IMG/VR virus record: IMGVR_UViG_3300029033_000070
Coordinates: 1 to 16,297 of that record
Reading direction: 5' to 3' (one strand)
DNA length: 16,297 nucleotides
Source of the DNA: a virus
Taxonomy: Duplodnaviria > Heunggongvirae > Uroviricota > Caudoviricetes
In this document: positions 82 through 16,297 of the stretch, piece by piece
Layout: every line of letters begins with the position of its first letter
Numbering within the stretch: position 1 is the first letter of the stretch
The notes under the pieces: generated by a model
Databases searched by the model: none
The model's input: only the letters and a program-made list of their open reading frames with translations
Told to the model about the DNA's origin: nothing
Program-made: the position numbers and the translations under genes

Positions 82-85
82 GCCC

Positions 86-1126: not shown

Positions 1127-1243
1127 GTCTTTTTCCCTTTTCCGGTTAACGTGACATACCAATAACTCTTGTCTAAAAAGCCAGCAAGCTGAAAGACAGG
1201 TATTCACCACCAGCACGTTTACTGTACTGATGCGATTTCAGTC

Positions 1244-1270
1244 ATAAAAAACCCGCCAGGCGGCGGGTTT
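1244..1270 (-). terminator. Intrinsic terminator immediately downstream of Q (possible tR'-like site)
   Basis: cccgcc-aggc-ggcggg hairpin (1252-1267) with a 6-T run after it on the minus strand (A-run 1246-1251 on +); only TTT follows on the + strand, so it is mainly a minus-strand terminator. Lies ~60-80 nt after the Q stop. Confidence 0.6.
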
Positions 1271-1327
1271 AAGTTGTGTGGCGTAGTAACCACTCTTAAC
1301 ATACTGACATACTTTTTGCGGACCGCG

Positions 1328-1720: not shown

Positions 1721-1737
1721 CAACTTTCTCCACAAAA

Positions 1738-2727: not shown

Positions 2728-2736
2728 CGTAGAACC

Positions 2737-3252
2737 TCACAGCACAATCTGTTTCAGTTTCTGTACCGCTTTCCCCATATCCGCCATAGCATCAACAAAC
2801 TCATCAAATTTACGACTTGCCATTCCATACGCCTGGAGGATTTCCAGTTTCAGAGGATCCAGTTGCTTTTTAATTTCCGCACGATCATTAAATTTCTTCT
2901 CTGCTTCTTCCGCAGCCCTGATCAGCTCCTCAGCATGCCTGCGTAATTCATCCGGAGTAACGGTCTTTTTAATCACAACGGGTTCCTCTGTTTTTACTGG
3001 TATTTCACTATTTACTGCCTGATGTCCAAATTTAGGATGATGTAACGTTGTAGTTCTTCCATCATTCGCAACGACCAGAAGTCCACTGTCGCGGATAATG
3101 CCAATGAGTATCTCCTTATCCCTTTTATTCAGTAGACTGTACGCCTGCACTTTCTGTGATATCTGGGTCAGTGTTGCGCCTTCCGGCATTCGTTCAACAA
3201 AACGTTTAACCCTGGATAAAACTGGCTGCAGATGGGGTGGTGTAATTCTCAT
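2737..3252 (-). CDS. Hypothetical prophage protein (171 aa)
   Basis: ATG at 3252 with GGGAGG 8 nt upstream; charged, helix-rich C-terminal half; no family recognised. Confidence 0.5.
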   Translation of the reverse strand: MRITPPHLQPVLSRVKRFVERMPEGATLTQISQKVQAYSLLNKRDKEILIGIIRDSGLLVVANDGRTTTLHHPKFGHQAVNSEIPVKTEEPVVIKKTVTPDELRRHAEELIRAAEEAEKKFNDRAEIKKQLDPLKLEILQAYGMASRKFDEFVDAMADMGKAVQKLKQIVL

Positions 3253-3267
3253 GCTCCACGCCTCCCA

Positions 3268-4083
3268 TCAGTGAACGGTATCGAGCAGCTTTAACAGCTC
3301 AGGGAATCGGGATTCGAAGAAATGCGGCTGCGTCTCGCGCGGATTTGCAGGACTGGTGATGTTCTTGCCGAACATGCAGCCTTTCGCTGTCAGCGACCAG
3401 AATTTTTTGATGTTGTTAATCGCGGTACGGCTGTATCGTTCGCGTTGTTCAACGATCCCCAGCTTCGCCATCTGGTGATATGCCTGATTAGCCGTCAGGC
3501 GGATACCATACTGCTTCAGCAGTGCACTCAGCGACAGCGTAGGGCGGCTTGAACCATCTGGCGCATCAGCAGGTGCATCAATGGCATAGATCGGCATAAG
3601 TTCAGGAAGACCAGCTACCTTTGATAATTTCTGGTATGCACCAAGTTTCGAGGAGTTTGACAGATTTAGAGTCTTTGCTGCTGATTCAAGCAGAATGACC
3701 CCGGATTTAATTTTGTCGGATGTGGTTTCTTCTGGTGATGAATTATGAAGCGCATCAAAAGTACGTATCACTTTTAAGCTGAATGCCGGGCTGATCCACA
3801 TTGCATATGCATAGACCAGCTCTTTACAGACATACGTCCCACCATTGCGCCCCTGAATGGTGATGACAGGAATACTACGGGAATCTCCCGTAGTTTCTTC
3901 TTCCAATAATTCCACAAGAGCCTTCGTTTCAGGACGACGCATAAACTCGTGAACTTCCAGCGAACGGGAGGAGCGATTCTCACCAGCGGCAAGAAGAGCA
4001 GCTTTCTGAAGGTCGTTAAGACAGTAGTTAGATTCGAAGTACTGGCGCACAGAAACGCCATCAATTACAAGCAACTGATTCAT
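3268..4083 (-). CDS. KilA-N domain protein (antirepressor-like)
   Basis: Motif QGRNGGTYVCKELVYAYAMWISPAF is typical of KilA-N domains. The ORF-track start at 4095 is a GTG; the ATG at 4083 is preceded by GGAG 7 nt upstream, so 4083 is preferred (271 aa). Confidence 0.7.
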   Translation of the reverse strand: MNQLLVIDGVSVRQYFESNYCLNDLQKAALLAAGENRSSRSLEVHEFMRRPETKALVELLEEETTGDSRSIPVITIQGRNGGTYVCKELVYAYAMWISPAFSLKVIRTFDALHNSSPEETTSDKIKSGVILLESAAKTLNLSNSSKLGAYQKLSKVAGLPELMPIYAIDAPADAPDGSSRPTLSLSALLKQYGIRLTANQAYHQMAKLGIVEQRERYSRTAINNIKKFWSLTAKGCMFGKNITSPANPRETQPHFFESRFPELLKLLDTVH

Positions 4084-4139
4084 TGGTTTCTCCACAAATT
4101 TTTATCCACGAGCGGGACTGCACTCCCTTTTCGTTGATG

Positions 4140-4245
4140 CAGGATGAACTTACTGCGATTTTTAATAGTTATCAAGGATACACTGTTCATAAATACAGTA
4201 TCTTTAACGAGGTAATACCCAAATTTAGGGTGTTGCTCAATTCCG
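4140..4245 (-). promoter_or_regulatory. Promoter region with a consensus LexA (SOS) box upstream of the KilA-N gene
   Basis: + 4181-4200 cactgttcataaatacagta = CTGT-N8-ACAG with AT-rich spacer (tactgtatttatgaacagtg on the minus strand). Flanked on the minus strand by two sigma70-like promoters: TTGATA-17-TAAGTT (-35 at 4170-4175, -10 at 4147-4152) and TTGAGC-17-TATTAC (-35 at 4235-4240, -10 at 4212-4217). Confidence 0.5.
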
Positions 4246-4641
4246 TTACCGAGTTGCTAATTTGCAACTCGCTTTTTCGTACTTACTGATAGTGATCTCG
4301 ACCTTCCCTTCCGGGATAACCGGTCCCCACTCCACCAGCATTCTTTTCACCTGGCTGTCGTCTTCCCACACACCCGCGTGGGTCAGGGCGTCAAACAGCG
4401 CCTTGTTATAGTTGTCCAGATCGCGGATCCGGTTATCCGGAGGAAACAACACGATCTCCACTGAAGCAGGTGCCGACGTTGGTTTCGGCAGACGACGTAA
4501 CTGCTCAACTATTGCTGCACACGCCGCGCTCTGGAATTTTCGCCCCGCCGCGCTTATCAGGCTCTTACCAGCAAACGCCCCTTTGTTAGGGTGTCGCCAG
4601 TACGTGTTCACGCTGGGCGGAAAAGGCAGTATTAGCTTCAT
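4246..4641 (-). CDS. rusA: Holliday junction resolvase RusA
   Basis: 131-aa translation carries the RusA-family DLDN/DD signature (DNRIRDLDNYNKALFDALTHAGVWEDDSQV). ATGA overlap with the upstream gene. Confidence 0.85.
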   Translation of the reverse strand: MKLILPFPPSVNTYWRHPNKGAFAGKSLISAAGRKFQSAACAAIVEQLRRLPKPTSAPASVEIVLFPPDNRIRDLDNYNKALFDALTHAGVWEDDSQVKRMLVEWGPVIPEGKVEITISKYEKASCKLATR

Positions 4642-4964
4642 ACTTTCAGGCCCCTCTCATGTAACCAGTGGGTTGCACGCAGCCTTGCGTTTTCCTCACC
4701 GGCAAGCAGTGCGCGGATAATCCCGACCGCCTCGCTGTCGTCGTCCTTCATCGCAGTATGAAGCGTTATCCCCCGGGCCACGCCACGCTTTATCGTGATG
4801 ACGCCTTTTTTCTCCAGTGCGCGAAGATGCTCCACCGCTGCATTCACCGAACGGTATCCCAGCATGGTTGCCACCTCCTGATTGGTTGGCGGGAAGCCAC
4901 GTTCTTTCTGATAAGAAATCAGCATATCCAGCACCTGCTGCTGGCATTGAGTTAATGTCGTCAT
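4638..4964 (-). CDS. LexA DNA-binding-domain-only protein (no S24 peptidase domain)
   Basis: MTTLTQCQQQVLDMLISYQKERGFPPTNQEVATMLGYRSVNAAVEHLRALEKKGVITIKRGVARGITL aligns along its length with the LexA N-terminal winged helix (LTxRQQEVxDxIxxxxxxxGxPPTxxEIAxxLGFRSPNAAEEHLKALxRKGVIEI...RGIRL). Only ~35 residues follow and they lack the Ser/Lys protease motifs. ATGA overlaps at both ends. Confidence 0.8.
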   Translation of the reverse strand: MTTLTQCQQQVLDMLISYQKERGFPPTNQEVATMLGYRSVNAAVEHLRALEKKGVITIKRGVARGITLHTAMKDDDSEAVGIIRALLAGEENARLRATHWLHERGLKV

Positions 4965-5614
4965 GCCGCCATCTCCCTGACCAGTTTTTCCGCCTGCTGG
5001 CGAGCCTGCGCCAGAAATGCCTCACCACATGCCTCAAGTTCATCGCGCCCGATGTAGCTGATTGCCGCTCCCTTCCAGGTCTTGTCGAAAACAGCAATAG
5101 CACCAGCGAAGAAAGCACCTGTTGGCACCTGCTTTTCGTCTTTCGGGATAAACCAGGCTGGCAGTTCAAAACCAATACGCCCGCGAATAAAAGCAATATG
5201 ATCTGCATCTTCCGGCCACCACACTTCGCTGGTGGCCGCTTTGATCAGGAAAACATAGCGCCCGCCTTTATCACGCATGGCACTGGCATGCTTCATGATG
5301 TAACGCATGCCGGTGATGTATTGTCCCTCATGCTGACTGGCGCGGCTGTACGGGGGATTACCAAAGGCAGCACCTTTAAGCTCCGCAAGACGTTCTGACC
5401 AGTCATGTGCCAGCGCGTTGTCTTCCGCCGTGTAATACGCGGCACATTTGGCGTTATCACCGTCAGTAAACAGATCCAGAACAAACGGGCCAAACAGGGT
5501 GTTAATTCCCCAGAAAATGTTGTCCGGCGTGCGCCACTGATCGCCCACTTCCTTCAGTTCATGGGCTGGTTTGTTCCGTAGTTCCACCAGCGCCTGGCAA
5601 TATTTATTACTCAT
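4961..5614 (-). CDS. Phage DNA N6-adenine methyltransferase (Dam-type, orphan)
   Basis: Motifs WRTPDNIFWGINTLFGPFVLDLF and FGNPPYS (NPPY catalytic motif). ORF track starts at a GTG (5647); the ATG at 5614 overlaps the upstream stop (TAATG) and has a G-rich SD, so 5614 is preferred. Confidence 0.75.
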   Translation of the reverse strand: MSNKYCQALVELRNKPAHELKEVGDQWRTPDNIFWGINTLFGPFVLDLFTDGDNAKCAAYYTAEDNALAHDWSERLAELKGAAFGNPPYSRASQHEGQYITGMRYIMKHASAMRDKGGRYVFLIKAATSEVWWPEDADHIAFIRGRIGFELPAWFIPKDEKQVPTGAFFAGAIAVFDKTWKGAAISYIGRDELEACGEAFLAQARQQAEKLVREMAA

Positions 5615-6108
5615 TAAGCCCCCACGTAATTCCCTGACAGATACCACTCATCACCCGCTACAGCGCGCTTTCTGCTTTTCCGTAAGCACCGCTCACGACG
5701 CGCCAGAAAATTGTTTCGTTCTGGCTGGGAGTGGCTTTCACGGAATGCCGCCATCCACACGGTTGCAGCACGACGGTATAAGCCCCTGGACTCCAGTTCT
5801 TCCGCCTGGCGGGTCAGGCACAAAATCACCCGGGGATCGTTAGTGCCGACATAGAAATTGCGCACAGGTATGGTTTCAAGAACAGGTTGCAGTTTCTCCT
5901 CCTGCGATATCTCAGCCTGGTGTGGGAAATGTCTGCGTGTTTTCCCTTCACAACAGTGAGCCACACGGCCACTCTGACGTAACTTGCTTGCTGACTGCAG
6001 AACGCACTGTCGTGAGTAACCAGCAAAAGCATCCGCAATGTCACCTGAAGTACACCCCGGATGGGCTTCAATGAATTTCTGTACATCGTTCATCAGACTC
6101 ATGATCAC
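5614..6108 (-). CDS. PerC-like putative transcriptional regulator (YfdN-like)
   Basis: Segment LESRGLYRRAATVWMAAF resembles the PerC-family core motif; the 164-aa length matches my recollection of YfdN. Start is GTG 6108 or ATG 6102, both abutting the O-like gene stop. Confidence 0.45.
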   Translation of the reverse strand: MIMSLMNDVQKFIEAHPGCTSGDIADAFAGYSRQCVLQSASKLRQSGRVAHCCEGKTRRHFPHQAEISQEEKLQPVLETIPVRNFYVGTNDPRVILCLTRQAEELESRGLYRRAATVWMAAFRESHSQPERNNFLARRERCLRKSRKRAVAGDEWYLSGNYVGA

Positions 6109-7088
6109 CCCCTGAATCCTGTCGGGATCTGGCTGTAGTCCACGTTGTCGTAACTGGCTTTGAAGTACGGGTCCTCGCGTCTGGCTGCAGATACCGCAGG
6201 AACTTCCCAGGATTCTTCGAAATGACGATCCGGACCAAAGAACGTGACAGCCTGTTTCACAAATTGTGTGCCGCTATTGCCCATCGCAGATACCCAGCCC
6301 GCGTAGCGTTTCACACCTTCCAGCATGGTTTCGGGGTTTACCCCCTCGTTCAAACGGGCTTTCCAGGCTTTGAAGGCTGCTGATTTTGAATTGCCACCAG
6401 CACGTTTGGGATATTCCTGCCAGGCCTGTTCAAATTCCGGTGAATATTCCTGTCGGGCAGAACGCGCTGGCGCAGACGCGTCAGCGGATGCATCAATAGT
6501 GTTTTTAGTCTCCGTTGTAATCTCTGTAGTAATCTCTGTATTTGTATCAACATTCGGCGTATCCCCTGTTCCGTTATGACGTCGGGGGGTGTTCCGTTTT
6601 AACGTAATAGCTGTATCGCTGATTGCATTATTGCTGTTACTTTCTGGCGAAACAGAAGAAGGTGTGGTGATGGCCGCAATTGCCTGTGGGTTGATCCCGA
6701 CAAACAAAATATTGCTGCATTTCACCCCATCGAGCATTTCCACCGTGCGTAAATCCAGAGTAATAAACCCTGCATCGCGCAGACGCTTCAGCGCATCTGC
6801 GGTTTCCCTTTTCCCGAAACCAAACTGCTCAGCAAACGCCTGGTAGCTTCTTTGCAGTTTGTCGCCCTGAAAACGCTTGCGATATCCCAGCAACGCTCCG
6901 GTGTGCTCATCCCTGACCTCTGTCGGGCGGTACCAGTAAACGATCTCTGAAAGCAGAGCGATAGCCGTCGCATCCGGACGCCCACTGGGTAGTCGAATAT
7001 ATTTCCACCAGGTCGCAGGTGTAACATTGCCGGAAATATTAATTTGACCAATAGCCATAACTTCCGGTGTGGGGGCGTAACGGCTCAT
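6105..7088 (-). CDS. Replication initiator, lambda O-like / replisome organizer
   Basis: N-terminal domain consistent with phage replisome-organizer N-terminus; C-terminal EFEQAWQEYPKRAGGNSKSAAFKAWKARL resembles O/DnaT-type C-termini. Carries an internal 12-bp tandem repeat. ATGA overlap with the upstream ORF. Confidence 0.6.
   Translation of the reverse strand: MSRYAPTPEVMAIGQINISGNVTPATWWKYIRLPSGRPDATAIALLSEIVYWYRPTEVRDEHTGALLGYRKRFQGDKLQRSYQAFAEQFGFGKRETADALKRLRDAGFITLDLRTVEMLDGVKCSNILFVGINPQAIAAITTPSSVSPESNSNNAISDTAITLKRNTPRRHNGTGDTPNVDTNTEITTEITTETKNTIDASADASAPARSARQEYSPEFEQAWQEYPKRAGGNSKSAAFKAWKARLNEGVNPETMLEGVKRYAGWVSAMGNSGTQFVKQAVTFFGPDRHFEESWEVPAVSAARREDPYFKASYDNVDYSQIPTGFRG
6517..6546. 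repeat. Tandem 12-bp direct repeat inside the O-like gene (candidate iterons / ori)
   Basis: gtaatctctgta at 6517-6528 and 6529-6540, then partial tttgta; encodes TEITTEIT in the inter-domain linker. By analogy, lambda ori iterons lie inside O. Confidence 0.3.
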
Positions 7089-7384
7089 ACAACCTCCTTC
7101 CGCAGCATGAGAATTGTGTAGCCACGCGCAGGTTGTAGTCTGGCTTTTGCATCAATAGTAAGCGTTGCAATTTTTCGGATATGAAGATAACCAGCTCTTT
7201 CCAGTGCCAGGGTTTCCCTGAATATCGCTTGCTTAGAACAACAGCAGAAATCAGCAAGCACCTGATGATCAATAACTCTCTCGCCTTCACCGTCTGAAGA
7301 ACCCGACATCAAAACACGCAACATAATCAGGCGCTGAATCGGGTTATCGAAAGCACATCCGCACACAAACTGAAAACAGTTCAC
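7085..7384 (-). CDS. Hypothetical small protein (99 aa; possible HTH)
   Basis: Stop overlaps the O-like ATG (ATGA), which supports translation. Start is GTG 7384 or an internal ATG. No family recognised. Confidence 0.4.
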   Translation of the reverse strand: MNCFQFVCGCAFDNPIQRLIMLRVLMSGSSDGEGERVIDHQVLADFCCCSKQAIFRETLALERAGYLHIRKIATLTIDAKARLQPARGYTILMLRKEVV

Positions 7385-7605
7385 GCCACACCTCCCAGAC
7401 GCTTAAACATTTTTCCGGAGCAAAAGGCTATAAGCGGCATACTGACGCGGTAATTACGGCCCAGCGGTTCACAAATCACCTTCTGACATTCACGGTCAAC
7501 CAGGCTAACACGTAGAACATGCCCTGCAGGCGTGGTGTACCACTGACCAGGACGAGGACAACGGAAAGTCTGATTGGTAAACCGTTTGAAAATATTCCGG
7601 ATCAT
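7381..7605 (-). CDS. Hypothetical small protein (74 aa)
   Basis: ATG at 7605 overlaps the stop of the Rha-domain ORF (ATGA). No family recognised. Confidence 0.4.
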   Translation of the reverse strand: MIRNIFKRFTNQTFRCPRPGQWYTTPAGHVLRVSLVDRECQKVICEPLGRNYRVSMPLIAFCSGKMFKRLGGVA

Positions 7606-8753
7606 TTGCGCCCCCTTACCTCTGAAGGGTTCAGCGACAAATTTATGAGACTGGCCAGTAGCGCCGCGTCGTTGATGCGGTCATACAGACTTACAGCCAG
7701 CGGGGATTCGGCTTTTGCCAACATGGGATAAAGCTGCTGCAGCCAGACCTTGTGGATTACCGACAGGTGGGAGTAAAGCACGCTGGCGTTATCTGCGGCA
7801 TCGCTCAGCGTGGATGGCTTTGAAAGCAGTTTTTCCATCTGGTTAAAGGCATTGATGTATGCCTCTTTGAACCGGGCAGCACGTTTACCCGTGAAACCCA
7901 TAGCAAGAAACGCAAAACCGTCGCGGGTGATTTGGTAACAAGGGAGTTTGCGGCCTGATGCGTCGGTGTATTCACTTAACACAAAATTGTGTTCAGTAAA
8001 TTCAGCGGAACATTCGAGGTTTCTAATTCTATCTAAAACCCGCTCATGCCGTTTAGTAAAGTAATTAGCTACTGCAAGAGATGTGGTGACAACGCGACCA
8101 TTGATAATCGTGATTTCAGGGTGAGATTGGGTTGGGAGAGTAGTCATGGTGACAGCCCCTATGTTGAATTCAATGAACTCACCACCAAGGCTTTCCACGA
8201 CCATATAGGTGGTGAGACGTACAGGGGTGGAAATACCGGTCAACATAGAACCCGGCCCAACCGAAGTTGGCCCTGCACGCCCCACCATAATTTGGGCGTA
8301 ACGATGCTCATGACACGAAAAAACCGCATGAGCGCGGTTGTGCTCTATATTGAATTTCGGGTTTCCACGCCCGGCACCCGCTTTATAAGGTGCCGGAACA
8401 GTGTAACGTCCCGGAATTGCAGAATCAATATGCTGGTGGTCCTTCACACTCAACAAAATCACGCCTGAATTTCCACAAAGGACTAAAGCACTCATGCGGG
8501 TAGTCTTTGCGAAGATAGATAACGCGCTGTGTTTCTGGCTCCCAACGAATAACATGGACATAAAGCCCTCTTCCGTCACGAAACCAGCGGTTAAGTTCCT
8601 GCACAACTCGCCCCCCACAGTCAGGTAAAGTTCTCTGTGGTTACTTACAGCCAGGTGATTTGGTAATCTGCATTCATGCCGTAACAACAGGTGTTCAGCG
8701 ACGCTGACCACCAGCTGTTGCGACAAACGGTTATTTGCCGTTAAACTATTCAT
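7602..8753 (-). CDS. Rha-family phage regulatory protein with ~200-aa N-terminal extension of unknown function
   Basis: Rha signature ITIINGRVVTTSLAVANYFTKRHERVLDRIRNL...YQITRDGFAFLAMGFTGKRAARFKEAYINAFNQME at aa ~210-300. ATG 8753 overlaps the upstream stop (ATGA), supporting the long form; an internal ATG at 8147 with AGGGG upstream would give a conventional ~181-aa Rha protein. Confidence 0.55.
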   Translation of the reverse strand: MNSLTANNRLSQQLVVSVAEHLLLRHECRLPNHLAVSNHRELYLTVGGELCRNLTAGFVTEEGFMSMLFVGSQKHSALSIFAKTTRMSALVLCGNSGVILLSVKDHQHIDSAIPGRYTVPAPYKAGAGRGNPKFNIEHNRAHAVFSCHEHRYAQIMVGRAGPTSVGPGSMLTGISTPVRLTTYMVVESLGGEFIEFNIGAVTMTTLPTQSHPEITIINGRVVTTSLAVANYFTKRHERVLDRIRNLECSAEFTEHNFVLSEYTDASGRKLPCYQITRDGFAFLAMGFTGKRAARFKEAYINAFNQMEKLLSKPSTLSDAADNASVLYSHLSVIHKVWLQQLYPMLAKAESPLAVSLYDRINDAALLASLINLSLNPSEVRGRK

Positions 8754-9307
8754 GCGTTAGTTTCTCCACAACCAGAAGCAATCGACGCCACGACGCCCGG
8801 AGCTGCACACTCGCGGGCGTTACTATTTTCTGGAGCGCAGAAGATTTTGTAGACCAGTGCTGCATGCTCCTGGAGCTTCGAAATTGAAAGATACAGTTCG
8901 TCGTTAATTGCTGTCTTCTCATGCGGTTCCACTACACCGTCTTCGATTGCTGAACGAATCTGTCTGGAATAACCGCCGATCTGTTCAATGACTTCCAGCA
9001 GGCGCTGGTTTATATCGGCGTTCTCTACTGCCTCAATTTCAGGAAGCGATACGAACACCCCACCAGCAGACTGTGCGACAGCATCCGCAATGTAGTGAGT
9101 GCCAGCCGCACGCTGTAAAACCATTGCCCATCCCAGCGGGAAAATCTGATCGCCATCTGCACGAAGGCGGTTGAATAAAGCGTTCTCTGTTACATCCAGC
9201 CAGTCAGCAGCTTCAGCGTAACCCCCAGGCAATGCCGCGATAGTTTTTCTGACAGCTTTCACGTACCACTCAGGTTGTTTTTCCACTTTCCAGTGATGCT
9301 TACCCAC
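8750..9307 (-). CDS. Hypothetical early-operon protein (185 aa), second gene after cro
   Basis: GTG start at 9307 with AGGAGG 6 nt upstream; overlaps the cro 3' end by 8 nt. Positionally analogous to cII/YdaT-type genes, but sequence not assigned. Confidence 0.55.
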   Translation of the reverse strand: MGKHHWKVEKQPEWYVKAVRKTIAALPGGYAEAADWLDVTENALFNRLRADGDQIFPLGWAMVLQRAAGTHYIADAVAQSAGGVFVSLPEIEAVENADINQRLLEVIEQIGGYSRQIRSAIEDGVVEPHEKTAINDELYLSISKLQEHAALVYKIFCAPENSNARECAAPGVVASIASGCGETNA

Positions 9308-9560
9308 GGCTTACCTCCTGTTCCTGTGGTTTAAACCCATTCTGGTTTTGGCTAGATTGAAAACGTGCCGGATAAAGAATCTGCATTTCGCTGATTTCAC
9401 CCTTAAAAAAATTGGCCAGACGTTCTGCAAGATCGATAGATGGAATTTGTTCCAGTCTTTCAATACGACTCAGCGTCGCTGGATTGACCTGAACGCCCGC
9501 AGCAACATGCTGCAAAGTAAATCCGTGCGCCTTACGCACATTCCGTAATGGTGATTGCAT
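9300..9560 (-). CDS. cro: Cro-like HTH (XRE-family) regulator
   Basis: 86 aa; HTH KAHGFTLQHVAAGVQVNPATLSRIERLEQIPSIDLAERLANFF. Divergent from the CI-type repressor; GGAGG SD before the ATG. Confidence 0.8.
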   Translation of the reverse strand: MQSPLRNVRKAHGFTLQHVAAGVQVNPATLSRIERLEQIPSIDLAERLANFFKGEISEMQILYPARFQSSQNQNGFKPQEQEVSRG

Positions 9561-9657
9561 ATAACCTCCACATATTGCGTGATGAGCATATTATTTCACG
9601 CAAATATTTTGCGCAAGTTGATTTGCTTAACGCGCAATAAAGAAATGTAATAAACGC
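9561..9657. promoter_or_regulatory. Immunity-region operator/promoter block (OR-like, PR and PRM)
   Basis: Repeated CGCAA/TTGCGC half-sites: ttgcgtga...tcacgcaa inverted repeat (9574-9604), cgcaaatattttgcg near-palindrome, acgcgcaa. Minus-strand TTGCGC-17-TAATAT (PR-like). Plus-strand TTGCTT-17-TGTAAT ends 6 nt before the cI ATG with no SD, implying a leaderless cI mRNA. Confidence 0.6.
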
Positions 9658-10350
9658 ATGAACATAGGAAATCGAGTCAGACAACTTCGCCAGGCGAAGA
9701 ACATGAAAATCGCCGATCTCGCTGAAGCAATAGGAGTGGATGCGGCGAATATCTCGCGCCTCGAAACAGGTAAGCAGAAACAATTCACTGAACAAGCCCT
9801 GAGTAATATTGCCAGGAGCTTAGGTGTTGATATTGCTGATCTCTTTACCTCAGACCTCAAAAGTAATACTGTATGTAAAAACAGTATTAGTGAGGATGTT
9901 GCGCAGGTGAAGGATGTATTCCGTATTGAAATGCTGGATGTCAGTGCCAGTGCGGGAAATGGCCTTATCCAGGGCGGTGATGTCATTGATGTGATTCATG
10001 CCATTGAATACAGAACTGATAATGCTGTATCGATGTTTGGTGGACGACCAGCAAATCACATTAAAGTTATCAACGTTCGTGGGGACAGTATGTGTCCAAC
10101 CATTGAGCCAGGAGATCTCATCTTCGTTGATATCAGTATCAATCAGTTTGATGGGGATGGTATCTATGTGTTTGGTTTTGATGATAAAATTTATGTCAAA
10201 CGACTGCAAATGATACCTGACAAACTACTGGTAATTTCTGATAACCAGATTTACCGTGAATGGGGAATTACCAGCGAAAATGAACACCGGTTTATGGTCT
10301 TTGGAAAGGTCTTAATCAGCCAGTCACAAACCCTTAAGCGACACAATTAA
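9658..10350 (+). CDS. cI: CI-type prophage repressor, HTH + S24 (LexA-like) self-cleaving peptidase domain
   Basis: N-terminal HTH (IGNRVRQLRQAKNMKIADLAEAIGVDAANISRLETGK); C-terminal GDSMCPTIEPGDLIFVD (catalytic Ser) and VKRL (Lys); an Ala-Gly pair in the linker (SASAGNG). Confidence 0.9.
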   Translation: MNIGNRVRQLRQAKNMKIADLAEAIGVDAANISRLETGKQKQFTEQALSNIARSLGVDIADLFTSDLKSNTVCKNSISEDVAQVKDVFRIEMLDVSASAGNGLIQGGDVIDVIHAIEYRTDNAVSMFGGRPANHIKVINVRGDSMCPTIEPGDLIFVDISINQFDGDGIYVFGFDDKIYVKRLQMIPDKLLVISDNQIYREWGITSENEHRFMVFGKVLISQSQTLKRHN

Positions 10351-10370
10351 CCCTTACCTCCTCATCAATT

Positions 10371-10395
10371 AGCCACCCGAAGGTGGCTTTTCATT
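10371..10395 (+). terminator. Intrinsic terminator after cI
   Basis: agccacc-cgaa-ggtggct hairpin followed by TTTTCATT. Confidence 0.6.
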
Positions 10396-10399
10396 ACTC

Positions 10400-10460
10400 A
10401 TCAAATTGCATATCTCGCAACAAAAATACTTGCATAATGCGCAACTTCATTTTATCTTTC
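10400..10460 (+). promoter_or_regulatory. Candidate PL/OL-like region
   Basis: TTGCAT (10430-10435)-17-TATCTT and an operator-like ttgcataatgcgcaa element sharing the GCGCAA half-site with the OR block. Promoter hexamers are weak; assignment tentative. Confidence 0.3.
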
Positions 10461-10890
10461 TTTCCAGACCAACAAACAAGGTACTAACAAAATTTGGTTG
10501 TAACACGGCGTATGGCACATGCGTCGTTAGCGGTCTGGGGACGTTAAAGGAGACAATCCACTCCTTGCTCGGGCAAACAAACCAGGTAGCCGGAATGTGC
10601 AAGTCAATGATGATGCTGATAAGACGCCTAACCAGCGTGGCGATTCGGTTTGACGCCTGGGAAGAGACCAGGGTGCAACGATGAGGGCATTTATGGAACC
10701 GCGACAAAGTGTGGTGCCGTAACTGGCTAAGTGCTCTCAGTGTTGTGGTGAAGGCGCAGGCTGATGCGCGAAAGACATTGCAGCTATTGCGGAAAAGAGC
10801 TGTTCGGCGGGGCAATTAAACGCCCGTGAGAGTCTGAAATAACCGCAAGCCGGAGATCAGCACCGGTCACCACAACAGCCACTGCTTTGG

Positions 10891-10939
10891 CGGTACCAGT
10901 TTGTACACTTGCTTCCGGCTGGTACCGCTCTTTTTACAA
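10891..10939 (+). terminator. Terminator-like hairpin overlapping a boxA-like motif in the PL leader
   Basis: cggtaccag-19 nt loop-ctggtaccg (10891-10927) followed by ctcTTTTT; the sequence gctctttttacaa (10927-10939) resembles boxA (rrn GCTCTTTAACAA, lambda CGCTCTTA). Confidence 0.4.
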
Positions 10940-11024
10940 AACAGAGAAGAGCATCACCGGACGACGGGCTCATAACCCAATCCATCCGGGCGGCTGCCAC
11001 CGCAGGTGTTCTTCTCTGTTTTGT
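10936..11024 (+). promoter_or_regulatory. Long perfect inverted repeat (15-bp arms, 59-nt loop) in the leader upstream of the first PL-operon gene
   Basis: acaaaacagagaaga (10936-10950) and tcttctctgttttgt (11010-11024) are exact reverse complements, extendable via cacc/ggtg; ends ~50 nt before the YfdP-like ATG. Confidence 0.4.
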
Positions 11025-11072
11025 GGGGAAACCAACCGACCTTGCAGGGTCGATATGATGAGGAGCAGCAAA

Positions 11073-11435
11073 ATGGCTAGCGAACGTAGTACTGATGTGC
11101 AGGCATTTATCGGGGAGCTGGACGGCGGCGTATTTGAAACCAAAATCGGAGCTGTTCTCAGTGAAGTCGCTTCCGGTGTGATGAACACGAAAACCAAAGG
11201 TAAGGTCTCGCTCAACCTGGAAATCGAACCGTTTGATGAGAACCGTGTGAAAATCAAACACAAACTCTCATATGTTCGCCCGACTAACCGCGGGAAAATT
11301 TCCGAAGAAGACACCACCGAAACGCCGATGTATGTCAATCGCGGTGGTCGCCTGACTATTCTGCAGGAAGACCAGGGACAATTACTGACTCTTGCCGGTG
11401 AACCTGACGGAAAACTCCGCGCAGCAGGTCATTAA
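11073..11435 (+). CDS. YfdP-like hypothetical protein (120 aa)
   Basis: ATG 11073 with GAGGAG 8 nt upstream; the track ORF 10887.. is an in-frame upstream extension without SD. The 120-aa size and position before the YfdQ/YfdR-like genes match my recollection of CPS-53 yfdP. Confidence 0.55.
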   Translation: MASERSTDVQAFIGELDGGVFETKIGAVLSEVASGVMNTKTKGKVSLNLEIEPFDENRVKIKHKLSYVRPTNRGKISEEDTTETPMYVNRGGRLTILQEDQGQLLTLAGEPDGKLRAAGH

Positions 11436-11500
11436 TATCGTTCTTAATTAACCGATTATTTATCTCATCACTGAATATCTTTATATAGTGAGGACTTATT

Positions 11501-12325
11501 ATGTCTCAGAACTTAGACGCAACCGCAATTAATCAAATCCATTCCCTTATTTCTGCTCAGGGTGTTAATGAAATTATCAGTAAGATTGGTGCCGATGCTG
11601 TGGCATTGCCTGAGAATTTCCGCATTCATGATCTGGAAAAATTTAATTTAAATCGCTTCCGTTTCCGTGGTGCGCTTTCCACTGCCAGCATCGATGACTT
11701 TACCCGTTATTCTAAAGATCTTGCAGATGAAGGCACCCGCTGCTTTATCGATGCCGATAATATGCGAGCAGTCAGTGTGCTTAACCTGGGTACTATTGAT
11801 GAACCAGGTCACGCAGATAACACCGCCACTCTCAAACTGAAAAAGACAGCACCGTTCTCTGCCCTGTTGTCTGTTAACGGCGAGCGTAACTCCCAGAAGT
11901 CACTGGCAGAATGGATTGAAGACTGGTCCGACTACCTTGTGGGCTTTGATGCTAATGGTGACGCTATTCAGGCAACAAAAGCGGCTGCGGCGGTCCGTAA
12001 AATCACGATTGAAGCAAACCAGACCGCTGATTTTGAAGATAATGACTTCAGCGGCAAACGCTCCCTGATGGAGTCTGTCGAAGCGAAGACCAAAGATATT
12101 ATGCCAGTGGCATTTGAATTTAAATGCGTTCCGTTTGAAGGTCTGAAAGAACGTCCATTTAAATTACGCCTCAGCATTATCACTGGCGATCGTCCTGTAC
12201 TGGTTCTGCGCATTATTCAGCTGGAAGCAGTGCAGGAAGAAATGGCTAACGAATTTCGTGATCTGCTTGTTGAGAAATTCAAAGACAGCAAAGTAGAAAC
12301 CTTTATTGGTACTTTCACCGCCTGA
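11501..12325 (+). CDS. yfdQ: YfdQ-like protein (DUF2303 family), 274 aa
   Basis: ATG with AGGA SD; 274-aa size and gene order (before the HD-domain YfdR-like gene) match CPS-53 yfdQ as I recall it. Function unknown. Confidence 0.6.
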
Positions 12326-12453
12326 TTTCATTACTGCAAATGCTCCTGCGGGGGCATTTATGGAAACGTAATTAACTCAATAATCGCCGGATGGTGCGGG
12401 ATTCCTTTTACCCGAATTCAGCGCGGTGCAGCGCATATAAAGTGGAGAACGAA

Positions 12454-12990
12454 ATGTCATTTATTAAAACTTTTTCCGGGAAGCATTTTTATTATGACAA
12501 GATAAATAAAGACGACATCGTGATTAACGATATCGCGGTTTCCCTTTCAAATATCTGTCGCTTTGCAGGACATCTTTCACACTTCTACAGTGTCGCCCAG
12601 CATGCGGTGCTTTGCAGCCAGCTGGTGCCGCAGGAATTTGCTTTTGAAGCGTTAATGCATGATGCAACAGAAGCGTATTGCCAGGACATCCCCGCACCAC
12701 TGAAACGACTTCTTCCTGACTATAAACGGATGGAAGAAAAAATAGACGCCGTAATCCGTGAGAAATACGGGTTACCTCCTGTTATGAGCACGCCAGTGAA
12801 ATATGCCGATCTCATCATGCTGGCAACCGAACGCCGCGATCTCGGGCTTGATGATGGCTCTTTCTGGCCAGTACTGGAAGGTATCCCGGCAACAGAAATG
12901 TTCAAAGTTATTCCACTGGCTCCGAGCCATGCCTACGGGATGTTTATGGAGCGCTTTAACGAGTTATCGGAGTTACGCACATGCGCATGA
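12454..12990 (+). CDS. yfdR: HD-domain phosphohydrolase, YfdR/YfbR-like 5'-deoxynucleotidase family
   Basis: H...HD metal-binding motifs (HLSHFYSVAQHAVL; ALMHDATEAY); start ATG 12454 with GGAGAA SD gives 178 aa. The track ORF start at 12391 is an unsupported extension. Confidence 0.7.
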   Translation: MSFIKTFSGKHFYYDKINKDDIVINDIAVSLSNICRFAGHLSHFYSVAQHAVLCSQLVPQEFAFEALMHDATEAYCQDIPAPLKRLLPDYKRMEEKIDAVIREKYGLPPVMSTPVKYADLIMLATERRDLGLDDGSFWPVLEGIPATEMFKVIPLAPSHAYGMFMERFNELSELRTCA

Positions 12991-13592
12991 ATGTTTTCGA
13001 AATGGAAGGGTTTCTTCGCGGGAAATGTGTACCACGAGATCTGAAAGTGAATGAAACAAATGCTGAATATCTGGTGCGTAAATTTGCTGAAGCGGAGGCC
13101 AAGATTTTGGCTCTGTCCGAAGACCAACAGAAAGCGATTGAGTCAATTAAGCAGGCTGATGCAGCTGTTAAGTTGGCACACGAGAAGTTTTCGGCGCTGG
13201 CGGCGGAGAATGCGGGGCTGAAACACGCAATGGCCGTAACTCTTGAGCATGTGTCGGTCACGGATGCAGGGCAGGCTGGTGTTGCTGCAATGATTATCAA
13301 CGATGCCCTGCACCACAGCGAAACTCCAGCCACCGATGCTTTCCTGGCTGAAATTCGTGCGGAAGCACGCAACGAGGGGATTAACTATACCGCAAGCCGT
13401 CTTGCTGCTGCTTTCAATCACGGATTTATCAATAAGTCTTTACGTGAAGTTTTCGACGTTACACGCATGATTCTGTCAGCGAAAGAAGAGTTGGCTAATG
13501 AACCACACCCGATTGATGGCCTGTCCGGTGAATATGCGGAGAAATCCCTAGAAGAATGGGCGGAACAGATTCGCAAAGGAGGCAACCAGTGA
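12981..13592 (+). CDS. Hypothetical Ala/Glu-rich (probably coiled-coil) protein, ~201-203 aa
   Basis: Start overlaps the YfdR-like stop (ATG 12981 with GGAG upstream, or ATG 12987 in an ATGA overlap). No family recognised. Confidence 0.5.
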   Translation: MRMNVFEMEGFLRGKCVPRDLKVNETNAEYLVRKFAEAEAKILALSEDQQKAIESIKQADAAVKLAHEKFSALAAENAGLKHAMAVTLEHVSVTDAGQAGVAAMIINDALHHSETPATDAFLAEIRAEARNEGINYTASRLAAAFNHGFINKSLREVFDVTRMILSAKEELANEPHPIDGLSGEYAEKSLEEWAEQIRKGGNQ

Positions 13593-13813
13593 GCGGAAAA
13601 AGAATGACTAACAGAGAGCTTGTTGATGCCGCGATTAAGCTTGCTGGTGATTTTTATTCAATGATGGGGTACGCGCATCGCCCTGGATTCAAATATTGGG
13701 AATCACCGCATCCGCAAGAGCAACTGGTATTTCAAATGGCCTGCCGTGCTTTTGAGGTTATTCGCGGTTCTGATGTGATGGACGCCGTTGCCGACTTGGA
13801 GGATGAAGAGTGA
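13589..13813 (+). CDS. Hypothetical small protein (74 aa)
   Basis: GTG start in a GTGA overlap with the upstream stop, AAGGAGG 6 nt upstream. The track ORF start at 13556 lacks an SD. Confidence 0.45.
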   Translation: MSGKRMTNRELVDAAIKLAGDFYSMMGYAHRPGFKYWESPHPQEQLVFQMACRAFEVIRGSDVMDAVADLEDEE

Positions 13814-14160
13814 CCCAAATTAACTATCAGGCACTGCGTGAGGCAGCAGTAGCAATTGAAACAGTGGCAACGCCTCAAAAATTGCAGGCGTTTCGGATGA
13901 AGGTCACACCGTCGGTGGTACTGGCGCTGCTGGATGAAATTAAGCGCCTGGAGGACACAAATATTGATGCTATGTGCCGAATTGCAGAACTGGAAGCGAG
14001 GGAAGTTCAATTACCGACTCGCTACGACCTTCGATATGGACACCCGATAAATGCAGATGAGCGACAAGTCATGATACCTAAAGAAAATGGCAGTTGGCTT
14101 TACCTGATTGACCTAGAACACGCATTACGCGTCGCTGACATTCGCATCAAAGGAGAGTGA
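13810..14160 (+). CDS. Hypothetical protein (116 aa), possibly ead/Ea22-like
   Basis: GTGA overlap start with GGAGG upstream; predicted coiled coil (VLALLDEIKRLEDTNIDAMCRIAELEAREV). The Ea22-like assignment is weak and from memory. Confidence 0.45.
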   Translation: MTQINYQALREAAVAIETVATPQKLQAFRMKVTPSVVLALLDEIKRLEDTNIDAMCRIAELEAREVQLPTRYDLRYGHPINADERQVMIPKENGSWLYLIDLEHALRVADIRIKGE

Positions 14161-14161
14161 T

Positions 14162-14677
14162 ATGGCGTTAACACACCACGAACTCTGTCAGATTGCGTAC
14201 AAGTTCCTTAAGCGCAACGGGTTCAAGGTTTGCTTTCATGACCGCTTTGTTGCTGTAACCAGTACCGGAGAACAGCCAGATGCTATGGGATTCAGAAATT
14301 CAGCATCATGCCTGATAGAGGCGAAGTGTTCTCGTGCTGACTTGTTGGCAGATAGAAAAAAGCGTTTCCGTAAAAATCCCTCACTTGGCATGGGCGACTG
14401 GCGATTCTTTATTAGTGAGCCGGAAATTATTTCAGTTGAGGATTTACCTCCCGGCTGGGGATTACTTCACGTTGTTAACGGAAGAGTACGGAAAGTACAT
14501 GGATGGCCCAGGGGTAATTGCTGTTGGGGTAATCCTGACGATAAGCCATTTACTGGGAATAAGCAGGTTGAATGCGATTACATGTTATCTGCATTAAGGC
14601 GCATGGAGTTGAGAGGGCACCTTAATGAAATATATGACGGTGTGATTGTTAATAAGAAAGAAGGAAACGCGGCATGA
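14162..14677 (+). CDS. PD-(D/E)xK nuclease-superfamily protein (Hjc/VRR-NUC-like motif spacing)
   Basis: E7 ... QPD(41) ... IEAK(53-55): EQPDAMGFRNSASCLIEAKCS has the canonical PD-x(n)-ExK layout. AAGGAG SD; start 1 nt after the upstream stop. Confidence 0.5.
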   Translation: MALTHHELCQIAYKFLKRNGFKVCFHDRFVAVTSTGEQPDAMGFRNSASCLIEAKCSRADLLADRKKRFRKNPSLGMGDWRFFISEPEIISVEDLPPGWGLLHVVNGRVRKVHGWPRGNCCWGNPDDKPFTGNKQVECDYMLSALRRMELRGHLNEIYDGVIVNKKEGNAA

Positions 14678-15591
14678 TCACTATTACCAAAGGGCGACTG
14701 CTGACAATCAAGCAGTGGCGCGAAACATACGGACCGGGTAGCAACGTTGTACTGCCAGCAGAAGAAGCGGAAGAACTGGCACGAATTGCTCTGGTATCGC
14801 TGGAAGCAGAGCCGGTGGCAAAGATTATAGCTCATTACCCATTAGGAGTTGACGTAGGCAAACAAAAGTTCGTACAGGCCATTGGAGAGCTTCCTGACTT
14901 TGGCGGATATCTATTTGCCGCCCCGCCAGCGCCGGTAGTGCCGGAAGAAGCAACTCCGGAAAACGTAGAAATGCTCTCTGGCTATGTTTCCACGTACAAA
15001 TTAACCGATAGCGAGCGCGATATTGCTGCCGAAATATGGAACGCCTGCCGCACCGCCATGCTTCAGTCCGGAAACTTTCGGGAAAGCAAGAATTCGTCAA
15101 CCAATAATTTTCGGGAAATCCCGGAAGCGTCAACCAGCTCTCCGGTAACTCCGGCTCTTCTGCCTGGTGGTTTCACCATTGAGGAGGCGAAGGAATTACA
15201 TGAAGACCTGGTACGCAGCCACATAAGCAAGGCCTTAAGTGGCGAAAAGATGAAAAAGAAAGATCGCGATGCTGATTTGCGCTGGATTCATGGCGTTATA
15301 GTTCAGGCAGCGTGGTTTGTAAAAGCATCACTGGAGCAGAATGCACTATCGGGCAACTCTCCGGTAACTCCGGATGGTTGGATAAGCTGTAGTGAGCGAA
15401 TTCCGGACGATAAACAGTATGTTTGGTGTTGGGGTAAGTCTTACGGCTGGACTGAGTGCGATACCTTCGAAGGGTATTACGATTGGTCGAGAAACAAATG
15501 GTGGGCAGTTACTGACGATGGGGAAGAACCGGCATCGAAAGTAACCCACTGGATGCCGCTACCAGAACCGCCGCAGGAGGTGCGCCAATGA
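14674..15591 (+). CDS. Prophage protein with C-terminal DUF551 domain
   Basis: C-terminal WGKSYGWTECDTFEGYYDWSRNKWW...VTHWMPLPEPP is the typical DUF551 ending; ATGA overlap start. Confidence 0.6.
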   Translation: MITITKGRLLTIKQWRETYGPGSNVVLPAEEAEELARIALVSLEAEPVAKIIAHYPLGVDVGKQKFVQAIGELPDFGGYLFAAPPAPVVPEEATPENVEMLSGYVSTYKLTDSERDIAAEIWNACRTAMLQSGNFRESKNSSTNNFREIPEASTSSPVTPALLPGGFTIEEAKELHEDLVRSHISKALSGEKMKKKDRDADLRWIHGVIVQAAWFVKASLEQNALSGNSPVTPDGWISCSERIPDDKQYVWCWGKSYGWTECDTFEGYYDWSRNKWWAVTDDGEEPASKVTHWMPLPEPPQEVRQ

Positions 15592-15671
15592 TCTGGCCTG
15601 AAGCATTTGCAATTACAGGCGTTGCTATGGCTATCGCTTTTTTAGTATATGTTATTTGTCGGTGTGGGTAA
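15588..15671 (+). CDS. Small hydrophobic peptide (27 aa, single predicted TM helix)
   Basis: ATG in an ATGA overlap with the DUF551 stop; AGGAGG 7 nt upstream; MIWPEAFAITGVAMAIAFLVYVICRCG. Confidence 0.35.
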   Translation: MIWPEAFAITGVAMAIAFLVYVICRCG

Positions 15672-15706
15672 AAGCGTTCGCCGGGATTAACACCAAAGGA
15701 GGGAAT

Positions 15707-15811
15707 GTGTCGGATGATATCTCACTGGCAATGGAAGGTGCGCTGGCTGTTATTGCTGTTGTGGGTGTTTACTGCCTGGTTGTGTTTTTGATGGATCGAC
15801 TAGGGAACTGA
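15707..15811 (+). CDS. Small hydrophobic peptide (~34 aa); frame uncertain
   Basis: AAGGAGGG at 15696-15703; GTG 15707 frame gives VSDDISLAMEGALAVIAVVGVYCLVVFLMDRLGN. An alternative frame from ATG 15714 gives a 25-aa Trp/Leu-rich peptide. Confidence 0.25.
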   Translation: MSDDISLAMEGALAVIAVVGVYCLVVFLMDRLGN

Positions 15812-15819
15812 ATTCATTA

Positions 15820-15841
15820 CGATATGGGAATTCCCATATCG
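15820..15841. repeat. Perfect 22-bp palindrome centred on GAATTC
   Basis: cgatatgggaa/ttcccatatcg; no U-tract on either side, so not a typical terminator. Confidence 0.6.
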
Positions 15842-16056
15842 GGTAAAAACGGTTTGCGGTAAAGCGAGAGTTAAGTAGAATTGCTGCGGGTGCTTGAGGC
15901 TGTCTGCCTCGGGCATGCCACCGTAAGGCAGACAGAGAAAAGCCCCAGTTAACATTATGCGTCTTGCAGGACGCTTAACATTAATCTGAGGCCAATTTCA
16001 TGCTAGTCACATGTAGGTTAGCCTCTTACACGCCGAAAGGCAAGGAGAAGCAGGCT

Positions 16057-16212
16057 ATGAAGCAGCAAAAGGCGATGTTAGTCGCCCTGATCGTCATCTG
16101 TATTACCGTCATTGTGACGGCACTGGTAACGAGGAAAGACCTCTGCGAGGTACGAATCCGAACCGGCCAGACGGAGGTCACTGTCTTCACAGCTTACGAA
16201 CCTGAGGAGTAA
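16057..16212 (+). CDS. hokD: Hok-family type I toxin (HokD/RelF-like)
   Basis: MKQQKAMLVALIVICITVIVTALVTRKDLCEVRIRTGQTEVTVFTAYEPEE is near-identical to HokD/RelF as I recall it. AAGGAG 9 nt upstream of ATG 16057; the track ORF from 16000 is an in-frame upstream extension. A 3' hairpin (cccgc-ttcg-gcggg) is cut by the window end. Confidence 0.8.
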   Translation: MKQQKAMLVALIVICITVIVTALVTRKDLCEVRIRTGQTEVTVFTAYEPEE

Positions 16213-16297
16213 GAGACCAGGCGGGGGAGAAATCCCTCGCCACCTCTGATGAGTCAGGCATCCTCAACGCACCCGCACTTAACCCGCTTCGGCGGGG

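Follow-up and report, generated by a model that had tools for sequence, protein, structure and literature searches.

Structured RNA modules in the presumed early-left leader of an N-less lambdoid prophage resemble the dicBF locus of Qin

Results

The presumed leader and its setting

A window of 16,297 nucleotides (nt), the stretch of IMG/VR virus record IMGVR_UViG_3300029033_000070 from position 1 to 16,297, was analyzed with the focus on the interval 10396-11072. This interval lies between a cI-like repressor gene (9658-10350, plus strand) and a YfdP-like open reading frame (ORF; 11073-11435, plus strand, match to phrog_204), which is followed by a YfdQ-like gene and by further genes of the early-left operon. 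The window is a lambdoid prophage and over this stretch is 100% identical to the chromosome of Escherichia coli CP55_Sichuan. When phage genomes were searched with high sensitivity, the interval turned out to be a mosaic of conserved structured-RNA modules, here called A, B, T and C, which is read in the direction of the left promoter PL. The leader is 96-99% identical to that of PhiR63_1, mEp460, phiSTEC1575-Stx2k and some Stx2a phages, and partial matches were found in cdtI, Stx2c phages, SfV and ST64B.

Upstream of the modules, a cro-like gene (9300-9560, minus strand) precedes the cI-like gene, and an intrinsic terminator follows the latter (10371-10388, plus strand; 7-bp stem, 4-nt loop and T-run in the terminator scan). 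Two cI-type operators, TTGCATATCTCGCAAC at 10406-10421 and TTGCATAATGCGCAAC at 10430-10445, share a repeat family with TTGCTTAACGCGCAAT, a site of the PR/PRM region (9623-9638); therefore the left promoter must lie here. The best reading of the sequence puts the presumed -35 hexamer TTGCAT at 10430-10435, the -10 hexamer TATCTT at 10453-10458 and the start around 10465, the hexamers being too weak for a consensus promoter scan to flag them. An earlier note on this DNA had described the whole of 10396-11072 as a highly structured leader. This applies to the leader proper, since the fold of its 641 nt gave z = -4.5 against shuffles and the modules carry compensatory changes, but not to the first 50-70 nt, which hold the two operators and the presumed PL. 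At its 3' end the leader is predicted to fold into a small hairpin (CGACCTTGCAGGGTCG, 11037-11052), followed by the Shine-Dalgarno sequence GAGGAG (11060-11065) and the ATG at 11073. The small hairpin recurs in relatives and the first ORF itself varies. When Rfam 15 was searched at gathering thresholds, no match was obtained in the leader, and the E-value mode on 10351-11120 returned noise only (microRNA, hairpin ribozyme and similar, E > 1).

Module A and its closing helix

Module A (10501-10745, plus strand) is an unannotated structured RNA of about 245 nt with five helices, composed of a core with helices P1 to P4 (10501-10684) and a closing helix P5 (10675-10692 with 10729-10745) that encloses a variable insert. 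The covariance model built for it (R1) scored 143.8 bits at this position and at most 4.8 bits anywhere else in the window; by this model the window, which includes the whole PR operon, thus holds a single copy of the module. Among 36 diverse copies that were aligned (A3), 97.5% of the P1-P4 cells were paired, compared with 27-50% when the partners were slid, ten pairs showed compensatory change, and the observed score was reached by none of 500 shuffles. The G-U pairs assign the RNA to the plus strand. Within the core, single-stranded stretches such as GGUAGCCGGAAUGUGCAAG are invariant. The P5 duplex had a predicted energy of -20 to -28 kcal/mol in 22 of 25 distinct variants, compensatory ones among them, against -8 to -10 kcal/mol for shuffled strands, and it is collinear with the helix of the Qin dicBF locus ending in ...GTGCGCTTCCGGTTGTGG, to which cleavage by RNase III has been mapped.

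In many copies (for example at loci L028, L060 and L075), P5 has the 3' strand AGTGCTCTTTCCGTTGTGG, which is like the rrn boxA (GCTCTTT) followed by a boxC-like GTTGTGG. A boxA/boxC-like reading of this strand was considered and rejected, as the strand covaries with its partner: variants such as GTGCGCTC change along with the opposite strand, and so it is the pairing that appears to be selected. Another candidate, a kissing interaction between the P3 loop of module A (UCACCA) and the 5' strand of module B (UGGUGA), was likewise abandoned, because the loop reads UAACCA in the window and does not change in step with the element behind it.

Module A is not confined to lambdoid leaders. In phage P1 it is located directly after tRNA-Ile and before ban (72-82% identity), in Uetakeviruses (O157 typing phage 9, SPN1S, Tyrion) directly before tRNA-Arg, and in other lambdoid phages again downstream of the repressor gene, in many lambdoid contigs about 25-45 nt downstream of a PL-like promoter. 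Its invariant 19-mer occurs at no fewer than 120 viral-contig loci, forming 46 clusters at 92% identity, and in species representatives from 12 named enterobacterial genera. Among 5426 complete E. coli genomes, 1833 (34%) carry the module, with 554 places on plasmids; at every E. coli place listed it is unannotated, and Rfam has no family for it. Mimicry of a host RNA was discarded as an explanation, since the E. coli-wide places are of prophage-type chromosomal or plasmid character, some beside tRNA-Arg, and nothing universal like rrn is among them. In three Uetakevirus loci (L005, L009 and L010, around locus positions 1400-2470), a self-contained cassette is encoded on the strand opposite to the flanking morphogenesis genes in the order P5-like helix, module A, tRNA-Arg(UCU), short hairpin, DicF-like hairpin with U-run and a further hairpin; the cassette has the look of a mobile RNA 'moron'.

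Module B occupies the slot of a tRNA-Arg

Module B (10745-10877, plus strand) is a cloverleaf-like element with a four-way junction as its centroid fold and a perfect 11-nt inverted repeat (10741-10751/10867-10877) at its ends. A 7-bp terminal stem (GTGGTGA/TCACCAC) is followed by 2 nt, a 4-bp stem with an 8-nt loop, a variable centre and a 3' hairpin that abuts the terminal stem; both small hairpins covary among B-type elements. The module starts at the G that ends the P5 string ...CGTTG, which is the first base of tRNA-Arg(UCU) in relatives. The 119 distinct contexts 3' of module A include 17 with tRNA-Arg(tct), 36 with a B-type element (starting with GTGGTGAA) and 21 with a cdtI-type element. 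The sequence after the tRNA-Arg is the one that follows the B-type elements (CCAC..AGAATCACGCCTNAGGACCGTGAT), the flanks being identical on both sides.

With phage tRNAs and with the RNase P-processed RNAs C4 of P1/P7 and CI of P4, module B shares the 7-bp stem, 2 nt, 4-bp stem and an 8-nt loop containing GG, and it starts and ends where the tRNA-Arg(UCU) of the relatives starts and ends. Unlike a tRNA, it has a non-canonical T-like loop and a variable central domain, by which the elements range from 79 to 203 nt overall. ARAGORN called no tRNA in the window, so 'tRNA-like' is to be taken as a structural and positional statement only; processing of module B by RNase P would be a guess.

Module T is a conserved terminator-type hairpin related to DicF

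A terminator-like hairpin had been proposed at 10891-10927. It is real, although slightly larger: module T (10889-10935, plus strand) has a GC-rich stem of 10-11 bp from G10889/G10890 to C10928/T10929 with a 19-nt loop, after which the sequence continues with CTCTTTTTAC, a run of five U. Its fold of -21.2 kcal/mol gave z = -4.4 against shuffles. In 72 of 74 distinct homologous contexts such a hairpin precedes the stem of module C (median -22.5 kcal/mol), in 66 of these 72 it ends within 3 nt of the U-run, and compensatory substitutions are present.

The 5' arm of T, TTTGGCGGTACCAGTTT, matches TTTGGCGGTATCAGTTT of the small RNA (sRNA) DicF of the K-12 prophage Qin, which takes the same position after a B element. 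The hairpin of the window and DicF have in common the arm TTTGGCGGTA(C/T)CAGTTT (UUUGGCGGUAYCAGUUU) and the tail CCGC(C/T)CTTTTT, and the loci of Qin, cdtI and the window align collinearly through P5-like helix, B element, linker and T/DicF. When the DicF covariance model (RF00039, gathering score 48) was applied, dicF of Qin scored 76.7 bits and the T hairpin of K-12 e14 28.5 bits. The model of STnc100 (RF02076, gathering score 47 bits) gave sub-threshold scores on the B+T counterparts of SfV (39.5), ST64B (35.1) and e14 (29.2); in SfV the match spans the entire model, with T aligned to the terminator of the family. These scores led us to inspect the dicF locus of Qin, where the order is a P5-like helix ending in ...GTGCGCTTCCGGTTGTGG, an element that is almost the same as the B element of the cdtI type, a linker, DicF, an STnc100-like element (34.1 bits) and dicB. 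The STnc100-like element between dicF and dicB (within 2170-2590 of locus L251) is closed by a long stem. In addition, the GenBank record of P1 annotates a 'dicF-like region' in the ban leader, the operon that holds its copy of module A.

The literature describes DicF as a processing product of a polycistronic transcript repressed by DicA, in which the 190-nt species owes its 5' end to RNase III and the 53-nt form to RNase E (bioRxiv 10.1101/2023.04.14.536235, citing Faubladier et al. 1990). The 190-nt species appears to be 'B element + DicF', the same architecture as that of STnc100. Judged by sequence comparison, T is the positional counterpart of DicF, and B+T resembles both the 190-nt DicF precursor and STnc100. 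With dicBF, the locus shares a non-coding stretch in a repressor-controlled early-left operon, the order of long helix ending in ...GTTGTGG, B-type element, linker and GC-rich hairpin with U-run, and an adjoining STnc100-like element. It differs in that T has another loop and no 5' seed extension, that modules A upstream and C downstream are both lacking in Qin, and that the genes behind it are yfdP/yfdQ and not dicB. With STnc100/PasD, it shares a multi-branched body with internal hairpins that is closed by ...UGGUGAA/CACCA... and followed by a single-stranded linker and the terminator hairpin, and homologous leaders reach 29-40 bits over the whole model; unlike that family, the leader copies all stay below 47 bits and lie in the PL leader rather than in a late region.

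A role of module T in targeting ftsZ received no support, the pairing being no better than that of shuffles. In some relatives (e.g. L143, loop CAGTTTCTCTCCC) the loop is perfectly complementary to GGAGAGAAAC of the ftsZ ribosome-binding site.

Full-length STnc100 elements are present elsewhere in the window. Two tandem copies on the minus strand at 82-291 and 569-774 (165.5 and 141.4 bits), both equipped with a terminator of their own, occupy the late-gene leader, which lies downstream of a Q-like gene (1328-1735, minus strand), and the opposite strand has a match to AsxR (63 bits; 26-78, plus). In K-12 e14 (L250), the stretch annotated as the protein gene ymfH (b1142; 5070-5381, minus strand) holds an STnc100-like element, a DicF-like hairpin and a diverged copy of module C, all upstream of xisE. 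This gene is probably an RNA and not a protein; our literature searches found nothing on ymfH in E. coli.

Module C encloses an invariant three-way junction

A perfect 15-bp inverted repeat had been reported about 50 nt before the YfdP-like start. The repeat is present as stated (10936-10950/11010-11024, 59 nt between the arms) and widens to a 20-bp stem (10936-10955/11005-11024) that closes a three-way junction, with a possible U-G extension using the U-run of T. The resulting module C (10931-11030, plus strand) folds with -50.3 kcal/mol (z = -6.3), and the stem ends 49 nt before the ATG at 11073. The inner helices are P-a (10957-10961/10985-10989), P-b (10966-10968/10976-10978) and P-c (10990-10993/11000-11003), and an invariant 23-mer, CGACGGGCTCATNACCCAATCCA, covers 10962-10984. 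In an alignment of 26 diverse copies (A4), which were retrieved with the same 23-mer that is found invariant in them, 94.4% of the cells were paired compared with 38-52% after sliding, nine pairs were compensatory and none of 500 shuffles reached the score; the copies retain the 20-bp stem, the 5-bp helix around a GGG/CCC hairpin and a third hairpin, which varies. At the centre of the stem (A4 columns 107/201; 10946/11014 in the window), 18 of the 26 relatives have a conserved mismatch, A-C or C-C. In the window this is a G-C pair, and therefore the repeat looks perfect here. In sequence the stem resembles P5 (CAAC..AGAGCA/TGCTCT..GTTGTGG).

The 23-mer occurs once in the window, with none expected by chance, and a diverged version is present in K-12 e14. 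Module C was found in at least 120 viral contigs, and T+C in 2811 of the 5426 complete E. coli genomes (52%), in up to five copies per genome. The first ORF behind it encodes YfdP-like or unrelated proteins. Module A is missing upstream at 67 of 125 loci with module C, and in contig L181 module C directly follows the operators and promoter without A, B or T. In K-12 CPS-53 (L248, 5248-5604), yfdP keeps only the last ~25 nt of the leader, with A, B, T and C replaced by GATTTTGACGGGTCA-like repeats; having lost module C, this yfdP was rejected as a model for the present locus.

Other RNA loci in the window

Besides the leader, the window contains a C4 antisense RNA (82.4 bits, 8205-8292, minus strand) and isrK (61.6 bits, 8317-8393, minus strand) inside a 383-codon ORF (7602-8753, minus strand) that GenBank records name Rha, antirepressor or peptidase, with a terminator-like site at 8339-8322. 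An immI-type c4/isrK leader in front of the antirepressor may have been miscalled as the N-terminal third of this ORF. A match to the sok antitoxin RNA (117.6 bits, 15888-16062, plus strand) overlaps a 70-codon ORF (16000-16212) that starts at the conserved AUG of the model; at its far end, the early-left operon probably carries a hok/sok-type toxin-antitoxin locus here.

Discussion

A probable processed and attenuating leader of the dicBF type

The interval is built like the dicBF leader of Qin, as a chain of independently exchangeable structured-RNA modules, and is a new variant of the dicBF/STnc100-type prophage locus. The explanation that we favor, and that we consider probable as a whole, is that it is the promoter-proximal non-coding part of the PL operon in an N-less lambdoid prophage of the mEp460/SfV/ST64B/Stx2 type and, by analogy with Qin, probably functions as an sRNA-generating, RNase-processed and attenuating leader.

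Upon inactivation of the cI-like repressor, PL would transcribe modules A and B, and RNase III would cut P5 near 10737 (10736-10738), as in the Qin transcript. Module T would stop a fraction of the polymerases at about 10935, which would give a B+T RNA of around 200 nt analogous to the 190-nt DicF/STnc100 form. RNase E may then trim this RNA to a short DicF-like hairpin RNA with the loop as a variable seed. Besides forming the 3' end of the sRNA, T would also attenuate the yfdP-yfdQ operon. Read-through transcripts would fold module C and continue to yfdP, with C as a probable second processing or stability element that sets the mRNA 5' end about 45 nt before the first ORF; this role is suggested because its stem begins with the U-run and is a long helix of the same kind as P5. 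The dense structure would also shield the ~600 nt of untranslated RNA from Rho. The earlier note had raised an RNase III-sensitive leader controlling downstream translation. Its processing part is plausible by homology, as P5 aligns with the Qin helix that is cut by RNase III; the translation part is weighed below.

Several observations weigh against this explanation. The terminator scan does not flag T, whose 19-nt loop compares with 3-8 nt in typical terminators, and neither DicF (RF00039) nor STnc100 (RF02076) matched B/T of the window in 10351-11120 even at E <= 10. The 5' seed of DicF, UUUCUGGUGACG, is absent from the window and from cdtI, the 19-nt 5' extension being missing. Pairing of the T hairpin with positions -60 to +30 of ftsZ reached -25.0 kcal/mol against a shuffle mean of -32.4 kcal/mol, in a crude test in which DicF itself attains only z = -1.5. 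The RNase III cut in Qin was placed in the 3' strand of the P5-like helix by counting 190 nt back from the DicF 3' end and not taken from a figure of the paper, and the promoter, the termination at T and every cleavage are inferred. Finally, the processing model names none of the specific partners that are implied by the invariant single-stranded stretches of A and the invariant C junction: the 23-nt invariant core of C and the conserved single strands of A exceed the need of an RNase III site or a spacer, and thus part of the function is missing from the model.

A related proposal, to which we give a rather low probability, is that the A core (~185 nt, P1-P4) and/or the C junction (CGACGGGCUCAUNACCCAAUCCA) are new functional RNA classes with a specific macromolecular partner, beyond processing scaffolds. 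Such an RNA would, for example, modify RNA polymerase, a host RNase or a tRNA enzyme in N-less lambdoids, P1 and Uetakeviruses.

Module C as a possible cis-acting control element

Among the rival explanations, control of the first ORF in cis survives best, and we regard it as possible but clearly less likely than the processed leader of the dicBF type. In the lambda N leader, which also contains nutL, a long hairpin is located about 50 nt upstream of the first PL gene and is probably subject to RNase III. Module C might act mainly in the same manner, its cleavage or refolding setting translation or stability of yfdP, with A, B and T as passengers. The long hairpin here, too, lies ~50 nt upstream of the first PL gene; the distance from C down to the operon's first ORF is always about 40-60 nt, whatever this ORF encodes, C is followed by the small hairpin and the Shine-Dalgarno sequence, its 20-bp stem has the size of an RNase III substrate, and L181 has C right after the promoter. 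On the other hand, in the predicted folds C leaves the Shine-Dalgarno sequence and ATG free, and control in cis leaves the invariant junction unexplained. The co-occurrence of T with C in 72 of 74 contexts makes the two look like one unit, at odds with T as a passenger. Unlike the lambda leader, the present one has neither N nor a conserved boxA, and its hairpin encloses an invariant three-way junction and is coupled to a terminator-type hairpin.

Antitermination

According to a second rival, which we consider unlikely, RNA-based antitermination replaces N, A or the two inner stem-loops of C binding and modifying RNA polymerase for read-through of T and of later terminators in the operon, Rho-dependent or intrinsic. 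The absence of a recognizable N gene, from which the earlier note had proceeded, was borne out: among 20 main ORFs searched against PHROGs there were Q-like and CII-like proteins and no N-like one, the only antiterminator being the Q-like gene at 1328-1735 (minus strand), and the leader ORFs matched neither an N-like family nor Pfam. A conserved terminator-type hairpin before the first gene, the location of A ~25-45 nt behind a PL-like promoter in many lambdoid contigs, as for putL of HK022, and the two adjacent stem-loops of the C core (~65 nt), which are invariant and imply a specific macromolecular partner, would fit such a mechanism. For the related N-less phage LLS, a put-like mechanism was speculated on by the authors without data (PMC12315714).

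The put-type mechanism suggested after HK022 was, however, not corroborated. A put covariance model (R2), built from seven sequences (HK022 putL and putR, HK639, phiEt88, CobraSix, S9-5 and UPF_BP1), recovered putL with 94.9 bits and putR with 47.1 bits and detected nothing in the leaders of the window, mEp460, ST64B, SfV, cdtI and mEp390; its best match in the window, 8.9 bits (E = 0.7), lies inside a coding region. The BLAST relatives of put exclude this phage group. While HK022 is likewise an N-less lambdoid phage with structured RNA near PL and a terminator ahead of the early genes, there is no similarity in sequence or structure, put having ~70 nt and two stems as compared with ~245 nt and five helices in A. 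Here the RNA is single-copy, and neither A nor C has a second copy on the PR side. T is kept at the 67 of 125 C-bearing loci without A, so A is not needed to pass T, and C is located downstream of T and therefore cannot act on it. In the 5 kb of the operon downstream, no convincing intrinsic terminators were detected on the plus strand, the coding strand: seven terminator-like sites were found on both strands compared with 5.9 expected by chance, and the two on the plus strand are weak (5- and 8-bp stems). Antitermination would also make little sense for the copies of A between tRNA-Ile and ban in P1 or before the tRNA in the morphogenesis regions of Uetakeviruses.

The string GCTCTTTTTACAA, which had been taken as boxA-like, consists only of the last stem bases of T and the U-run, and its GCTCTT (10927-10932) is unconserved; SfV has GTCCTTT, ST64B GACCTTT and most of the 26 aligned copies CGCCCTTT. 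No boxB was recognized, in an analysis that included no dedicated boxB search, and the string is followed by the 5' strand of the C stem. Literature searches found nothing on antitermination in N-less Stx2c/2851 phages. Because of the lack of N, the negative put model, the single copies of A and C, the C loci without A, the lack of convincing terminators downstream and the unconserved boxA, processive antitermination is neither needed nor supported.

Relics and protein-coding genes as unlikely alternatives

It is likewise unlikely that the modules are largely inert relics, that is, decayed tRNA or sRNA cassettes with the linkers as recombination joints and no role in operon expression. The modules do come in many arrangements, and the strings at their junctions are sharply conserved (...CGTTGTGG, CTTTTTAC, GGAGAAAC); CPS-53 has lost C, and K-12 prophages tolerate rearranged versions. 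Against decay, compensatory changes keep the helices intact in different phage families, long unpaired stretches do not vary, 34-52% of the complete E. coli genomes carry the modules, T+C in up to five copies per genome, and the Qin counterpart is demonstrably processed to a functional sRNA (bioRxiv 10.1101/2023.04.14.536235).

As to coding potential, the interval had been described as free of convincing ORFs, with frames of only 13-29 codons. Longer frames do exist, with TTG/GTG starts and 92, 122 (minus strand), 49 and 36 codons. GenBank records call ORFs in the leader inconsistently, different ones and on both strands, which is itself a warning sign. No conserved protein-coding gene emerged from the comparison of homologues, in which none of the leader ORFs is conserved as a reading frame and the substitution pattern is one of compensatory pairing. 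That small proteins are the product of the interval, from the 49-codon frame at 10909-11058, the 122-codon minus-strand frame at 10447-10815 or the 21-codon ATG frame at 10764-10829, is hardly credible: GenBank annotates such ORFs, K-12 annotates the e14 counterpart as ymfH, the 49-codon frame over C matches phrog_33599, a family without assigned function, and a 134-aa frame antisense to yfdP phrog_3651, and most homologues have no stop codon in the frame across the C core, but annotators differ on strand and frame, no Pfam family and no conserved start codon or Shine-Dalgarno sequence is found, the frame, but not the pairing, is disturbed by a 1-nt indel (L152) and by P-c inserts that exceed the others by ~25-27 nt, the variable parts of A differ in length by non-multiples of three with no frame open in all copies and three homologues closed through the core, and the substitutions, G-U pairs included, are compensatory and not codon-like.

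Conclusions

The early-left operon of a large group of N-less lambdoid phages, to which SfV, ST64B and the Stx2a and Stx2c converting phages of E. coli O157:H7 belong, opens with an array of RNA genes on the dicBF plan. DicF, STnc100/PasD and the tRNA-Arg cassettes of phages, three entities with separate names, are thereby joined in a single modular system. Covariation is strong in modules A and C, which are present, unannotated, in 34% and 52% of complete E. coli genomes, respectively, A also in P1. Several phage 'hypothetical proteins' and K-12 'protein' genes such as ymfH are probably not proteins. The dicBF-type reading gives specific predictions for RNase III, RNase E and termination sites. 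Should the variable loops of the DicF-like hairpins indeed serve as seeds, the host mRNAs targeted upon induction may differ from one phage lineage to the next, which would bear on the biology of Shiga-toxin phages.

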